Source: a virus
Lineage: Duplodnaviria > Heunggongvirae > Uroviricota > Caudoviricetes
IMG/VR virus record: IMGVR_UViG_2671180433_000015
Direction: 5' to 3' (one strand)
DNA: 7,499 nucleotides
Below the pieces are notes generated by a model. That model worked only from the letters and a program-made list of their open reading frames with translations, was not told where the DNA came from and searched no databases. Position 1 is the stretch's first letter, and every line of letters begins with the position of its first letter. Shown one piece after another: positions 1,093-7,076 of the stretch. Both the position numbers and the translations under genes were made by a program.

Positions 1093-1971
1093 TCAGACTG
1101 CAAGATCCAAGGGAAGATCAGAAATATCCTTTAATCTTTTACCATTAACCATCACGGAAAGCATGTCAGCTGCATCGCTGAGCCCCAGTATTTCAACTGC
1201 TGATATAAGTTCATAAAGCGCAAAATGATACACGCAATCTATATCACCAGTACCAAGAGCAATAGACGCCAGACGACTTGGAGTAGGCTCAGCAGTAACA
1301 ACCATTACATGAGGGAGATTTCCCTTACGGTTGCGAATAAGATTTAATGCCTCAGAACGAGCATTCTGGGCCCGGTCGCTTCTTATTGTCCATTTGCAGG
1401 AAATACTTGCGTGTAATATTGGTTTCCCACCATTCGAACTCCTGAGAGCTGACATGCGGGTAACAGAATCATCCACCAGTAATTCAGGACTGTTGATAAC
1501 TTGATCACATTCAGGTTCTCTTTCAACAATAATATCTGGTGAAATCGTATAATCACTCCCCAGTGCAGCAGCTAGCTGAGGATTACTTTTTGCAGCACTA
1601 TCCAATGCTATAAGATGGGCATATTGTTCATATTTAGCTATCTCTAATCTGTTTCTACCAGAAACCTGATGTACATTCCATTTTCCAGGGCGTAAGTGGC
1701 TGAGTTTAAAAAAGGTTTTTTCTATAAACTCTGCGCAGATACTCTCAAACTGATTACCAGATGTTTGCCCTGCAACACGTTCACCAATCGTTTCAGCCTG
1801 CAAGAAGCGAGCAATTTCTCTTGCTATAGCTTTACTGTTTTTGTTACTGCTATCTGCGTTACTAACAACTCCGGCAGTATTAATTGTGAGCGTATTCAGT
1901 AACAATTGGGCATGAAACTCCTTTCTGGCTTCAGCAAAACCAACTATGCTGTCAACCAAATCTCCATTCAT
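1093..1971 (-). CDS. Putative Type II restriction endonuclease, NgoMIV/Cfr10I-like class (292 aa)
   Basis: Track ORF 1093..2106 trimmed to ATG 1971-1969 (MNGDLVDS...). That start lies 13 nt after the methyltransferase TGA stop (1987-1985) and 9 nt after a GAAGGA SD. Motifs, numbered from this start: SPD146, S191-C-K193, E208, and R197-S-D199-R200 four residues after the lysine. This matches the non-classical PD...SxK...E active site plus R-x-D-R recognition element as I recall it for NgoMIV, Cfr10I, Bse634I and SgrAI. Co-oriented with and immediately downstream of a C5-methyltransferase. Confidence 0.6.
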   Translation of the reverse strand: MNGDLVDSIVGFAEARKEFHAQLLLNTLTINTAGVVSNADSSNKNSKAIAREIARFLQAETIGERVAGQTSGNQFESICAEFIEKTFFKLSHLRPGKWNVHQVSGRNRLEIAKYEQYAHLIALDSAAKSNPQLAAALGSDYTISPDIIVEREPECDQVINSPELLVDDSVTRMSALRSSNGGKPILHASISCKWTIRSDRAQNARSEALNLIRNRKGNLPHVMVVTAEPTPSRLASIALGTGDIDCVYHFALYELISAVEILGLSDAADMLSVMVNGKRLKDISDLPLDLAV

Positions 1972-1984
1972 TTCTGGATTTCCT

Positions 1985-3109
1985 TCAGGCTGCTTGACTA
2001 TTCTTACTGATGTTATTCTTATACCGTCCCTGCAAAACTCCATACACATATTGTGCGATTTTTGCCGCAAATAGCGGTGGAACAGCATTCCCGATCTGCT
2101 TTGCAATCTCAGTTTTTGAACCGGTAAAAATGAAATTATCAGGAAAAGACATTAATCTCGCTGCCTCACGATGAGTTATTGGCCGATCCTCTTCCGGATG
2201 TAAATATCGCCCTTTCTCCGGTTTGAAAAACTCAGTACGAATCGTTACTGAAGGTTTGTCCCACCACAGACGTCCAAACAAATCGGTCCCTCCAGATTTC
2301 TTTTTTAGCCAGCACGCCGGGGTTATATCAGGTCTTTTTTTCTGTAAATCGAAACGGTTACCTCCTGGTGGAACCGCTTTATATCGCTCCAGAGAAACAG
2401 GAGTGGGATTACGCCCAAAATGTAAGTTCAGCGGAGGAAGTTCATTACGAATATCAGTTCCAACAGGAGCAGGTAAGTCACCAATTGCATCACGCGTACA
2501 GACCCATTCAGGCAAAGCGACATCCTTATCAGGGGAACGATGCGTTGGTGCTGGCGGGAACGCCGGAATACTATGCACATCGAAGAGTTCTCGTTTGATA
2601 CCGATTGCTATCGTTCGTTTTCTTGTCTGAGGTACTCCATAGTCAGCAGTATTCAACACCATTGGATTAAGCAGAATAAAGCCCATGGATTTCGCTCTAA
2701 ACGTAATGTCCGCAAACTCATCGCTTATCAGCAATCCGGGGACATTTTCCATGACGAACATACAAGCCCTTGAACGCTCAATGACATCCATATAAGGCTC
2801 CCACAATGCTCTTCGGTGATCACCATAACGATTCTTATTCAATAAACTGAATCCCTGACACGGGGGGCCACCTATGACCACATCAGCCTCAGGAACAGTA
2901 TTGCTGGATGCCCACTCCTCAATATTTGCCTGAACTCCATGCAAACCAAAATTGGCATTGTAGGTATTTATAGCTGCAGCATTATTATCAATAGCAAGGA
3001 TACTTTCAAAGTAGTCAGACATCTCTCCATGAAGAAAACCATAAGATAATCCACCTGCCCCACAAAAGAGGTCTATCACTCTGAATTTATTTAATTCTTT
3101 CATCCGCAT
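1985..3109 (-). CDS. DNA (cytosine-5)-methyltransferase (374 aa)
   Basis: Canonical m5C-MTase motifs in order: I DLFCGAGGLSYGF (FxGxGG), IV GGPPCQGFS (catalytic PCQ), VI ENVPGL (ENV), VIII QTRKR, IX REAARLMSFPDNFIF, X QIGNAVPP. About 150 aa between motifs VIII and IX forms the variable target-recognition domain. ATG at 3109 has a GAGG SD 7 nt upstream. No N-terminal HTH extension. Confidence 0.9.
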   Translation of the reverse strand: MRMKELNKFRVIDLFCGAGGLSYGFLHGEMSDYFESILAIDNNAAAINTYNANFGLHGVQANIEEWASSNTVPEADVVIGGPPCQGFSLLNKNRYGDHRRALWEPYMDVIERSRACMFVMENVPGLLISDEFADITFRAKSMGFILLNPMVLNTADYGVPQTRKRTIAIGIKRELFDVHSIPAFPPAPTHRSPDKDVALPEWVCTRDAIGDLPAPVGTDIRNELPPLNLHFGRNPTPVSLERYKAVPPGGNRFDLQKKRPDITPACWLKKKSGGTDLFGRLWWDKPSVTIRTEFFKPEKGRYLHPEEDRPITHREAARLMSFPDNFIFTGSKTEIAKQIGNAVPPLFAAKIAQYVYGVLQGRYKNNISKNSQAA

Positions 3110-3287: not shown

Positions 3288-3974
3288 TCACTCCTTCTCT
3301 TCTTTTCCGTAGTGGAGTTGGCCAATTTTGATAAGAGGGCGTCCCTGAGATTTGCGGTGTAGATTGGTATCGCGCAGAGAATACACACAGCCACAATATT
3401 CCTGCTGATAGAATTTTTCGCGCTTGCTGATTTCAATCATACGGGACGAGCCGCCCTGCTTGCGCCAGTTATAATCCCAGTACACCATACCCGGATAATG
3501 CGCAACAGCTCGCCGCCCACACTCGTTAACCTGCTGCATATTTTTCCAGCGTGAAATGCCCAGTGAACTACTGATCACACTGAAACCATTTTCAGCAGCG
3601 TACAACGCTGTCCGCTCAAAACGCATGTCAAAACACATGGTACAACGGATCCCCCTCTCAGGCTCCCATTCCATTCCTTTGGCACGTTCAAACCAGTTGT
3701 CGGTGTCGTAATCAGCATCGATAAACGGCACGCCGTGTTGTTCAGCAAAGCGAATATTTTCATCCTTACGAATTAAATACTCTTTCTGAGGATGAATGTT
3801 CGGGTTGTAGAAAAAGATGGTGTAGTCGATTCCCGAGGCCTGAAGCGCCTCCATCACTTCACCGGAACATGGAGCACAGCAAGAGTGCAGTAGTAGTTTG
3901 TTTGCCCCGTTTGGAAGCTCCAATTTAGGCCGTTTGAAATCAGCAATAGTCATAAATATTTTTATTGGGGTCAT
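3288..3974 (-). CDS. QueH-like epoxyqueuosine reductase family protein (DUF208), Fe-S protein
   Basis: 228-aa track ORF. N-terminal [15 protein letters not shown] motif and C-terminal EYCGCVYS cysteines fit the conserved Cys pattern of DUF208/QueH as I recall it. An alternative ATG at 3953 would give MTIADF...; neither start has a strong SD. Confidence 0.6.
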
Positions 3975-5360: not shown

Positions 5361-6107
5361 TTACTTCACAACCCTCATATTGCTGACATTTGGACGCCAG
5401 CTATCCCAGTTAAACGTCACCCATCGACCACCGTTCATGGTCATGCGGTCCATAATCCTCTCACCAAGAAGCGTACTCATTGCGGCATGATTCAGGTTTG
5501 TTAACATCCCGACACTGCACAGTGATGCTGTCCGGCGATCAATTATCTGGTGCAATACCACCTGCTCGTTTTTCGTCTCCCGCTGAACGCCTATTTCATC
5601 CAGGACCAGCAAATCAACCCCGCAAAGCTCCTGTAAAAATTTTTCCCCGGATTTGCCGTTGTCGTAGCTGTCATGCAACACGCTCATGACGTCAGACACG
5701 GTGACGATAATCACGCTGCGCCCCTTCACCATCAGCCGGTTGCCCATCGCCGCTGCAAGGTGATTTTTCCCGGTGCCGGTTTTACCGCTGAACACAAAAT
5801 TCGTGCACCCGGTCATCAGTTCGTCAGCTATGGATTTGGCCTGGCTCAGCGCGTATTTTTGCCCGTCGTTCTGCACCTGATAATTTGCAAACGAGCATTT
5901 GCTGTGCAGAGGCTGGATGCCCGAACGATTCAGGATTTTTTCCACCCGCAACTGGCGATTCTGGCGGTTAATCTCCTCGCTGCGTTTTCGTCCTTCAGCA
6001 AGTTGCCATTCCCGCCACTCCTCCACCGTCCGGTACGGTGGAACCGACCCCTGTGGTGCAAGTCTGCGAATACGTTCAAGAACCCCAACTGCCGCAATGT
6101 TTTTCAT
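5361..6107 (-). CDS. DnaC-family replicative helicase loader (AAA+ ATPase, IstB-like), 248 aa
   Basis: Walker A GKTGTGKNHLAAA and Walker B DLLVLDEIG. Extended collinear similarity to E. coli DnaC as I recall it (NRSGI.PLH..CSF.NY, TGMLTN, LLGER.MDRM, FNWDS.R). ATG 6107 lies 6 nt after the stop of the upstream initiator gene. Confidence 0.9.
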   Translation of the reverse strand: MKNIAAVGVLERIRRLAPQGSVPPYRTVEEWREWQLAEGRKRSEEINRQNRQLRVEKILNRSGIQPLHSKCSFANYQVQNDGQKYALSQAKSIADELMTGCTNFVFSGKTGTGKNHLAAAMGNRLMVKGRSVIIVTVSDVMSVLHDSYDNGKSGEKFLQELCGVDLLVLDEIGVQRETKNEQVVLHQIIDRRTASLCSVGMLTNLNHAAMSTLLGERIMDRMTMNGGRWVTFNWDSWRPNVSNMRVVK

Positions 6108-6113
6108 GACACG

Positions 6114-7076
6114 TCACCCCCTGAATCCCGGCGGTATTTCAGTGTCCGGTTCAGAAATGTGATTCACGCAACGCTGCGCAGGCGAACGCCCCAGGCGGAT
6201 AACCAGTTCATCCCATTTTTCCCGGAGTTTTGCCGGACTCATGATGTTTTTTACCCAGAACGAATCCCGCTGGAGACGCCCAAACATTTCACAAATTTGT
6301 CTGTGAGTTCTGCCATCCAGCATCCGCATTGTGCGAACGTCATTGGCCCATGCTGTCCAGTTGGGTTCTTTCGGTCTAGTGATCTCGCCATCATAGCTGG
6401 CCGCCTGCTCGTAAAGACTCACGATTCGTCCCCAGATCCACTGTGCGCACACCAAATCTTCCTGACTTCCCCACTGGCGTTTTTTCGCACTGAACACAAC
6501 CGCGTCAGGGTGTCGGGTTAAAAAATCCTGTTCAGCCGTCTGCGGGTCCGGTTGCGAAGCGTCCGGACAAGAAGATCTTTTATCTGACGGATCAGGTTTT
6601 AATACTGACGGATCGGGGTCAATCATCGCCCCCCTAATCGGCAGTTTTTTATCAACAGTTGATCCATCAAAATTTGACGGGTCAACCGTTGAGGGGGCAA
6701 TATTTGACGGGTCAACTGTTAACGGGTCATTTTTTGCCGGGCTAATTTTTCTTTTCGGTTTATATGACTCACGCGCCGCCGCCGCAGCTGCTTCGAGTTT
6801 TTCCACATTAAGCCGATAGATATTGCTTACATTACGCCCACCGACCTTACGCTCTTCCTTCGTCAGCCAGCCCTCTTTCGCCAGTTCTGCAATAGCCGAT
6901 TTCACTGTGGATTCACTTCTTGCACCGATCTGACGCCGGATAGTTTCAATGGCAGGCCATGACACGCCCTCGTCATTGCTGTAGTCTGCAAGACGGGCCA
7001 TAACCGCCACCCTGGATAAGATCATGCCGGTGAAGGCGCACCCTTCCCAGACAAGACCATGAAGCTTGCTGCTCAT
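6114..7076 (-). CDS. Phage replication initiator (lambda O-like, N-terminal HTH) with DnaT-like C-terminal tail, 320 aa
   Basis: Track ORF 6114..7091 starts at GTG; the ATG at 7076 is preceded by a GGGGG SD. N-terminal HTH-like region (LSRVAVMARLADYSNDEGVSWPAIETIRRQIGARSESTVKSAIAELAKEGWL). Central Pro/Asp/Ser-rich repeats are encoded by the iteron array. C-terminus ...SEPDTEIPPGFRG resembles the C-terminus of E. coli DnaT as I recall it. Operon arrangement mirrors dnaT-dnaC. Confidence 0.85.
   Translation of the reverse strand: MSSKLHGLVWEGCAFTGMILSRVAVMARLADYSNDEGVSWPAIETIRRQIGARSESTVKSAIAELAKEGWLTKEERKVGGRNVSNIYRLNVEKLEAAAAAARESYKPKRKISPAKNDPLTVDPSNIAPSTVDPSNFDGSTVDKKLPIRGAMIDPDPSVLKPDPSDKRSSCPDASQPDPQTAEQDFLTRHPDAVVFSAKKRQWGSQEDLVCAQWIWGRIVSLYEQAASYDGEITRPKEPNWTAWANDVRTMRMLDGRTHRQICEMFGRLQRDSFWVKNIMSPAKLREKWDELVIRLGRSPAQRCVNHISEPDTEIPPGFRG
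6584..6770. repeat. Iteron array plus adjacent AT-rich tract inside the initiator gene (putative phage origin of replication)
   Basis: Direct repeats built on TGACGG(G/A)TCA at 6585, 6606, 6675 and 6705, plus a partial copy at 6722. Repeats 3 and 4 are near-identical 20-mers (TTTGACGGGTCAACCGTTGA and TTTGACGGGTCAACTGTTAA). A related palindromic TCAACAGTTGA lies at about 6652-6662. AT-rich stretch 6728-6770 (CATTTTTTGCCGGGCTAATTTTTCTTTTCGGTTTATATGACTC). Confidence 0.55.

Follow-up and report, generated by a model that had tools for sequence, protein, structure and literature searches.

A DnaT-like C-terminal tail of phage replication initiators co-varies with DnaC-type helicase loaders and may be a loader-docking motif

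The bacteriophage lambda initiator O recruits P-DnaB via its own C-terminal part. Together with the host pair DnaT-DnaC, the YdaU-YdaV pair of the Rac prophage, and the DopC-type and phi80 gp15-gp14-type initiators, the lambda O-P pair is among the described systems closest to the locus considered here, a replication module carried by a lambdoid prophage of E. coli. It occupies positions 5361 to 7076 of a stretch of 7,499 nucleotides (nt) from IMG/VR virus record IMGVR_UViG_2671180433_000015 (Caudoviricetes), and we refer to this whole stretch as the window. Modules of this kind, an initiator followed by a DnaC-like helicase loader as in Rac YdaU-YdaV, are ordinary, widespread, and already known. 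The subject of this analysis is the short peptide at the C terminus of the initiator, the type of which strictly co-varies with the type of loader.

In the host pair, as found in K-12, dnaT is 2 nt upstream of dnaC. Ducos et al. (2026) solved the preprimosome, in which the DnaT C-terminal domain (CTD) contacts PriA and the acidic linker contacts PriB; they state that the step at which DnaB-DnaC is recruited is still unknown, suggest the DnaT N-domain as the recruiter, and give the DnaT tail no role (PMC13377028). A contact of DnaT with DnaB has long been proposed, and Liu et al. (2014) found that DnaT without amino acids (aa) 154 to 179 has ~2-fold lower affinity for single-stranded DNA (ssDNA) and lower cooperativity (PMC4132743). 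On the phage side, Brezellec et al. (2017) described proteins with an HTH_36 domain and a DnaT C-domain (DopC; DopC-DopE) upstream of lambda-P-like genes, and the mosaic nature of such initiators is thus already known (PMC5509034). According to Brezellec 2016, as cited in the same paper, dnaC and dnaI were domesticated from phages.

Compared with these systems, the window's module is a composite. Like lambda O-P, it has a DNA-binding N-domain, linker-coding DNA with (in the window, candidate) origin iterons, a homologous C-domain, a loader gene directly after the initiator, and a Ren-like gene further downstream. In contrast, its N-domain is of the HTH_36 type rather than that of lambda O, an AAA+ DnaC paralog takes the place of lambda P as loader, and its tail is DnaT-like, whereas lambda O ends ...LDLTNTDWIYGVDL; nor is the tail of the P-associated W or DW type. 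The resemblance to DnaT-DnaC consists of a 20-residue tail and of a gene position upstream of a DnaC-family loader (at a distance of 2 nt in the host and 6 nt in the window), but the window's initiator has neither the DnaT N-domain nor the ssDNA-binding three-helix domain, and it is presumably targeted by origin sequence and not by PriA-PriB. In Rac, YdaU ends ...VNTVSLPDSAIPPGFRG and 6 nt separate its gene from ydaV, the product of which has 80% identity to the window's loader; Cro/CI-like and YdaT-family regulator genes precede the pair in the same order as in the window's prophage. However, YdaU has a DUF1376 N-domain and another C-domain, so that only the tail and the loader are common to both. 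DopC-type proteins, also encoded ahead of a helicase loader gene, likewise join an HTH_36-type N-domain to a module familiar from DnaT, but this module is the DnaT DNA-binding domain and the partner loader is lambda-P-like, whereas the window's initiator has the tail alone and a DnaC paralog. Finally, a homolog with the source name "Replication protein 15" (P0115), which represents the phi80 gp15-gp14 type here in place of phi80 proper, ends ...VDYATPAGFRGY; phi80 gp14 is DnaC-like. Some phage records name homologs of the initiator "primosomal protein I."

The window's initiator consists of a winged-helix domain, a lambda-O-type C-domain, and a DnaT-type tail, and ends ...QRCVNHISEPDTEIPPGFRG, also written ...SEPDTEIPPGFRG. 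When it is aligned with K-12 DnaT by BLASTP, only the last 20 residues align, with 14/20 identical and 18/20 positive (pairwise E, 1e-7). Consistent with this, the NCBIfam DnaT model matches only the last 21 residues (E, 0.004), and DnaT structures 2RU8, 6AEP, and 9ZBT match in the same 21 residues alone (E, 0.01 to 0.03). The protein as a whole scores 16.7 bits against the cutoff of 201 for the DnaT equivalog, its aa 305 to 325 (in the numbering of a 325-aa open reading frame [ORF]) matching model positions 159 to 179 only. Homology of the whole C terminus to DnaT was rejected: there is no match to Pfam PF17948, Foldseek returned no DnaT structure, and hhalign gave a probability of 1% when a C-domain profile (38 non-redundant sequences) was compared with a profile of the DnaT DNA-binding domain (78 sequences), tails excluded from both. 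The C-domain is instead homologous to that of lambda O (35% identity between initiator aa 153 to 300 and O aa 145 to 277; E, 5e-26 by BLASTP), and this alignment stops exactly where the tail starts. The initiator also matches PHROG 391 (E, 2e-115). No similarity to the N-domain of lambda O (aa 1 to 144) was detected, and HTH_36 is the only Pfam match above cutoff.

The tail is nearly invariant in close DnaT orthologs, with a consensus of ...RDxNxxSEPDxxIPxGFRG to which the window's initiator conforms, including the DnaT-invariant residues P174, G176, and F177. In an exhaustive HMMER search, divergent DnaT proteins (30 to 50% identical, some of them AT-rich) were found still to end ...IPDGFRG, ...IPYGFKG, or ...IPDGFRDK, and in an alignment of 18 of them the residues known to bind ssDNA are invariant together with P174, G176, and F177, and M1 is all that the N-domain retains. 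The same search returned many phage-type proteins of 270 to 540 aa with a whole DnaT C-domain, the tails of which are G-type, W-type, or other (these types are defined below); one of these proteins, P0352, has the window's N-domain (43% identity).

An earlier note on this DNA, made from its letters alone, had described an O-like initiator with a DnaT-like tail, followed after 6 nt by a DnaC paralog with intact Walker A and B motifs, and had stated that host dnaT is directly upstream of dnaC. The ORF listing, the junction sequence, and the alignments with lambda O, DnaT, and DnaC agree with it in each of these respects. Its further proposal that a helix-turn-helix domain was fused to a DnaT-like C terminus does not hold in that form, since a complete lambda-O-type C-domain is located between the two and only ~20 residues are DnaT-like.

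Tail types were read from the best 120 of 913 homologs of the initiator. In these, the bodies are conserved as far as ...KLREKWDEL..L (...SPSKLREKWDEL..L), and beyond this point there are discrete tail types: G-type (...SEPDTEIPPGFRG, ...VDYSQIPAGFRG, and ...VDYSLPENSGFRS/T), W-type (...WNTPEGWRDVL and ...HWNSPEAWENTL, with the general form ..WN.xEGW..L), and a lambda-like type (...NTNWIDGIEDDL). We compared tail type with loader type in a one-genome-per-species set of 79 loci; the initiator of locus L022, an ORF of only 134 aa, was set aside from the full-length counts. In this set, all 26 full-length initiators with W-type tails are followed by a Pfam Phage_lambda_P/PHROG 109 loader, and within 2.5 kb of the 35 with G-type tails there is in no case a gene of the P, DnaC-like, or DnaB-like kinds. 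Next to these 35 initiators are PerC-like, ParB-like, DUF977, DUF1627, or methylase genes. The short L022 initiator is G-tailed, and a DnaC-like loader comes after it.

Loader-first scans gave the same picture from the other side. Each of the 80 DnaC-like loader loci examined in IMG/VR has a G-tailed ORF 2 to 6 nt upstream, ending ...[RC][DC][VI]N.[IV]S.PD..[IV]P.GF[RK]G; these loaders are 48 to 54% identical to K-12 DnaC, and one of the loci is host dnaT-dnaC itself. At lambda-P loci the upstream ORF ends ...DLTNTDWIYGV[DE]L in 79/80 cases, and the G-type tail is absent from all 79 of these initiators. It is also absent from the ORFs upstream of P22 gp12-type helicases (0/70). Where a true DnaT-type C-domain is combined with a ...ALDCTDWRDD tail, a lambda-P-like loader comes after the initiator in 75 of 75 loci, which shows that it is the tail, not the C-domain, that goes with the loader. 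Initiator- and lambda-P-seeded viral scans returned mostly near-identical copies from few independent lineages, and the diversity of the loci stems from the one-genome-per-species scan and the DnaC-seeded scan. Based on these counts, we conclude that tail type strictly co-varies with loader type. The 14/20 match between the initiator and DnaT is short when taken alone, but because the same tail recurs upstream of all 80 DnaC-like loaders, it is far beyond chance.

One candidate exception, P0337, which has a G-type tail and a downstream Pfam lambda-P match, was rejected as a decayed locus (L489, 3996 to 4533, on Logan contig SRR28974614_5687). Its initiator is G-tailed, with an HTH_36 N-domain and a DnaT-type CTD, and its stop codon is followed by a frameshifted DnaC-like remnant (aa 184 to 247) and then by a lambda-P fragment (aa 102 to 210) with an in-frame stop. 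Other G-tailed proteins with a DnaT-type CTD were located mostly on contigs shorter than 2 kb.

Two further sets of tails were observed. The tails before lambda-P-like loaders (loci L407 to L486, L003 to L081, and L243 to L322) are of the classes ..WNTxEGWxxVL, ..LDLTNTDWIYGVDL, and ..EALDCTDWRDD, and in each class the tail is acidic and retains a Trp, frequently within D/N-W; these acidic Trp tails may be a second docking motif, specific for P. In prophages of Duganella and Janthinobacterium (L069 to L078), O-like initiators before a DnaC/IstB-like loader end ...QDYRAGVxxDGSF, not GFRG, and this may be a third tail-loader pairing. These hosts are not known to have DnaC or DnaT.

The G-type tail is also found apart from the body that carries it in the window. 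Homolog P0071 has a different C-domain but the identical tail, SEPDTEIPPGFRG. In the Stx-type phage POCJ13, the DNA match to the window is limited to the loader gene and to the final 61 nt of the initiator gene, which encode the tail; the rest of this initiator gene is unrelated, and its product ends RCVNHISEPDTEIPPGFRG. The initiator of phage HannyBb differs in its N-domain but has the C-domain and tail of the window's initiator, and a Ren-like gene comes directly after it, without an intervening loader. The 80 ORFs upstream of DnaC-like loaders have at least nine unrelated bodies, including DUF1376/YdaU-like, lambda-O-N-domain-like, HTH_36, and host DnaT bodies. Because the same tail, with the consensus R-[DC]-[VI]-N-x-[IV]-S-x-P-D-x-x-[IV]-P-x-G-F-[RK]-G-COOH, is carried by at least nine unrelated bodies, including that of Rac YdaU, comparison of the sequences identifies it as a mobile module, not a one-off fusion.

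This bears on the possibility that an origin-binding helix-turn-helix domain acquired a host DnaT C terminus, by host-to-phage transfer, and so gave a new phage-specific loading route. The 14/20 identity of the tail to DnaT, the gene order shared with dnaT-dnaC, and the existence of other phage initiators that do have an entire DnaT CTD plus tail (including DopC, PMC5509034) are all consistent with such an event, but the C-terminal half of the window's initiator is lambda-O-type and not DnaT-type, and a single fusion is insufficient to account for at least nine bodies and many phages with the tail. In addition, dnaC is considered phage-derived in the paper that cites Brezellec 2016 (PMC5509034), and DnaT-CTD domains are widespread in phage-type proteins with several tail types; for these two reasons, a phage origin of dnaT-dnaC, and hence the phage-to-host direction, is favored. 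We therefore regard the host-to-phage fusion as improbable.

A second possibility is that the tail has no partner at the protein level and merely travels with the loader, as its neighbor or as its ribosome-binding site. On the DNA the tail directly adjoins the loader gene, and the tail codons AGG GGG and the stop codon TGA overlap the loader's Shine-Dalgarno-like sequence. However, the 20 residues are kept at the protein level in front of loaders that are only ~50% identical, they are kept in DnaT proteins that are 30 to 50% identical and in phages without a downstream loader, and the mosaic breakpoints fall at the boundary between C-domain and tail, not at the gene boundary. Hitch-hiking of this kind is very improbable as the explanation of the pattern.

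We propose that the tail is a short docking motif for DnaC-type loaders, contacting either DnaC or the DnaB-DnaC complex, and from sequence comparison we judge this somewhat more probable than its negation. The proposal is made by analogy with lambda O, which recruits P-DnaB through a different C terminus, and the predicted disorder of the tail is as expected of a linear docking motif. In such a mechanism, the initiator would bind iterons within its own gene through the N-terminal winged-helix domain, the disordered tail would dock a DnaC-type loader carrying host DnaB, and host DnaB would thereby be delivered to the opened origin. The loader would be the co-translated phage paralog in the window's prophage and host DnaC in relatives without a loader; G-tailed initiators that have no loader gene therefore presumably use host DnaC. 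The earlier note had suggested a phage-specific route for loading host DnaB. Such a route is plausible, but the tail more probably feeds into the host DnaC-type pathway than makes a new one, because many phages whose initiators have the tail encode no loader.

Several observations weigh against the docking proposal. The 2026 preprimosome paper proposes the N-domain of DnaT, not the tail, as the recruiter (PMC13377028), and the mild loss of ssDNA affinity and cooperativity on removal of DnaT 154 to 179 (PMC4132743) means that the tail could serve DNA binding or oligomerization. The tail is encoded adjoining the loader gene, and simple linkage could give part of the association. Many of the loci are close relatives, not independent lineages. 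Among the G-type tails, the variants ..VDYSLPENSGFRS/T depart from the consensus of DnaT and are perhaps not its equivalents. Lastly, in the prophages of Betaproteobacteria a non-G tail goes with a DnaC/IstB-like loader that is more distant.

The main rival to docking on the loader is that the tail docks on DnaB itself, or only on assembled DnaB-DnaC, with the phage DnaC paralog as an optional accessory. G-tailed initiators without a phage loader are numerous (the 35 genome loci and HannyBb), and the partner of the tail would therefore have to be a host protein in all Enterobacterales; the DnaT-DnaB contact long proposed (PMC4132743) is also consistent with DnaB as that partner. Yet a G-type tail precedes every phage DnaC paralog examined (80/80), which points to a need specific to the loader, initiators with lambda P as partner recruit host DnaB as well and never have the tail, and initiators paired with phage DnaB-like helicases are without it (0/70). 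Based on these patterns, we consider docking on DnaB unlikely, although less so than the other alternatives.

It is also conceivable that the tail mimics DnaT toward PriA, PriB, SSB, or ssDNA, so that the phage origin is fed into a PriA-type primosome. With its acidic residues, its I-P, and its F near the C terminus, the tail motif has what we take to be a loose likeness to the SSB C-terminal tail DDDIPF, and the effect of the 154-179 truncation on DnaT (~2-fold lower ssDNA affinity and reduced cooperativity, PMC4132743) would be in keeping with a role of this kind. But the window's initiator is without the DnaT DNA-binding domain, which means that its tail cannot act within a DnaT-CTD filament, and the 2026 structures place the PriA contact in the CTD and the PriB contact in the acidic linker, with none in the tail (PMC13377028). 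The strict exclusion of the tail from lambda-P-type modules would also be left unexplained, and mimicry of replication restart is in our opinion a doubtful explanation.

Returning to docking on DnaC-type loaders, a broader form of the proposal can be stated tentatively, and we hold it with less confidence than the docking motif itself. The [IV]-P-x-G-F-[RK]-G peptide may be the missing recruiter by which DnaT and phage initiators engage DnaC or DnaB-DnaC; a tail code (G-type for DnaC-type loaders, W/DW-type for lambda P) may select the loading route; and host dnaT-dnaC may be a domesticated phage cassette. The comparative pattern directs attention to a single short, invariant peptide and a single family of partners for the hand-over from DnaT to DnaB-DnaC, and so bears on the step from PriA-PriB-DnaT to DnaB-DnaC that was called unknown in 2026 (PMC13377028). 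A tail module would also account for the swapping of initiators and loaders among lambdoid phages without loss of compatibility, and for the viability of phage HannyBb, which has an O-like initiator and no loader gene. The uncharacterized K-12 genes ydaU and ydaV gain a concrete predicted interaction. In the searchable literature (which excludes subscription-only papers), we found no paper in which the tail is described as a docking motif specific for loaders, and the role proposed for it appears to be new.

The features of the module are collected in Table 1.

Table 1. Features of the replication module, by position in the window
Feature	Position	Strand	Basis or remarks
DnaC-paralog AAA+ helicase loader, 248 aa, YdaV ortholog	5361-6107	-	RefSeq WP_044862401.1 "ATP-binding protein"; PHROG 50 "DnaC-like helicase loader"; Pfam IstB_IS21
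Loader Walker B LLVLDE, aa 166-171	5595-5612	-	Aligned to DnaC LLVIDE
Loader Walker A GKTGTGKN, aa 108-115	5763-5786	-	Aligned to DnaC GKPGTGKN
Gene junction	6108-6122	-	Sequence read directly
Replication initiator gene, 320 aa	6114-7076	-	RefSeq WP_000095675.1 "helix-turn-helix domain-containing protein"; PHROG 391 "replication initiation O-like"
DnaT-like C-terminal tail QRCVNHISEPDTEIPPGFRG, aa 301-320	6117-6176	-	DnaT similarity; AlphaFold2 predicted local distance difference test (pLDDT) <50
Lambda-O-type helical C-terminal domain, aa 181-297	6186-6536	-	BLASTP to lambda O; AlphaFold2 helices, pLDDT 72-89
Disordered DPS-rich linker, aa 109-176	6549-6752	-	AlphaFold2 pLDDT <50; low-complexity, variable in homolog alignment
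Putative origin iterons inside initiator gene	6652-6741		~5 units of 15 nt, consensus TCAACAGTTGACGGG, GTTGACCCGTCAA dyads
N-terminal winged-helix DNA-binding domain, aa 1-105	6762-7076	-	Pfam HTH_36, E 2e-6; AlphaFold2 pLDDT 73-86, topology H-H-H-H-E-E

The initiator starts at the ATG at 7076, with the N terminus MSSKLHGLVWEG, and this start is invariant in the aligned homologs. An AlphaFold2 model built from 44 homologs (mean pLDDT, 66) has four parts, which are a winged-helix N-domain, a disordered linker, a helical C-domain (aa 181 to 295), and a disordered tail (aa 298 to 320). Foldseek searches with this model returned matches only to winged-helix regulators (MarR/PadR/ArsR-type), and the N-terminal winged-helix domain is presumed to be the origin-recognition domain. 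The repeats in the linker-coding DNA were detected as a tandem array (Tandem Repeats Finder period 15, 5.2 copies, score 65) and also, by repeat search, as a repeat family and an inverted repeat. They occupy the position that the lambda origin has within gene O, and by this likeness to lambda the array is probably the prophage origin, for which it is our candidate.

With K-12 DnaC the loader shares 48% identity over aa 1 to 242 (E, 8e-88), the DnaB-binding region at the N terminus included, and with Rac YdaV it shares 80%. It scores above the cutoff of PRK12377, the NCBIfam model for the paralog (506 bits; cutoff, 389), but is under the cutoff of the NCBIfam DnaC equivalog model (299 bits; cutoff, 357) and is thus not scored as a true host DnaC ortholog. 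Its AAA+ match is to Pfam IstB_IS21 (E, 7e-19). The junction between the genes reads ...TTC AGG GGG TGA CGT GTC ATG, with 6 nt between the initiator stop and the loader ATG, and within AGG GGG TGA, the last two tail codons and the stop, there is a Shine-Dalgarno-like GGGGG 8 to 12 nt ahead of that ATG. The sequence of the junction suggests translational coupling from initiator to loader. The end of the tail peptide and the translation start of the loader are physically coupled at 6108 to 6122.

The two genes fill 5361 to 7076 exactly, on the minus strand, according to both the ORF listing and the RefSeq annotation of a prophage in an E. coli O111:H11 strain. This prophage adjoins rspB/ynfA and is 99.7% identical to the window over 7.4 kb, and at least 80% of the window is present in 47 complete genomes. 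In this closest complete genome, the large terminase gene is frameshifted (580 to 2504 of locus L002) and a TerB-family gene has an internal stop (9794 to 10156 of the same locus), and because of these two lesions the O111:H11 copy is probably defective, with its replication genes intact. All genes of the window are on the minus strand, in the order CII-like/YdaT-family, initiator, DnaC-like loader, DUF1627, DUF977/Ren-like, QueH, Dcm methylase, and NgoMIV-family endonuclease.

The last three of these genes and the DNA between them were also noted. The epoxyqueuosine reductase QueH (3288 to 3974; Pfam E, 1e-65) is the only queuosine gene in the window. The NgoMIV-family endonuclease (Pfam E, 1e-126) and the C-5 cytosine methyltransferase form a complete type II restriction-modification pair (1093 to 3109). 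Between the QueH and Dcm genes there is a match on the minus strand to the sok antitoxin RNA (Rfam RF01794; 3040 to 3220; E, 5e-12; bit score, 61; gathering score, 59), which suggests a hok/sok-type toxin-antitoxin locus in the prophage.

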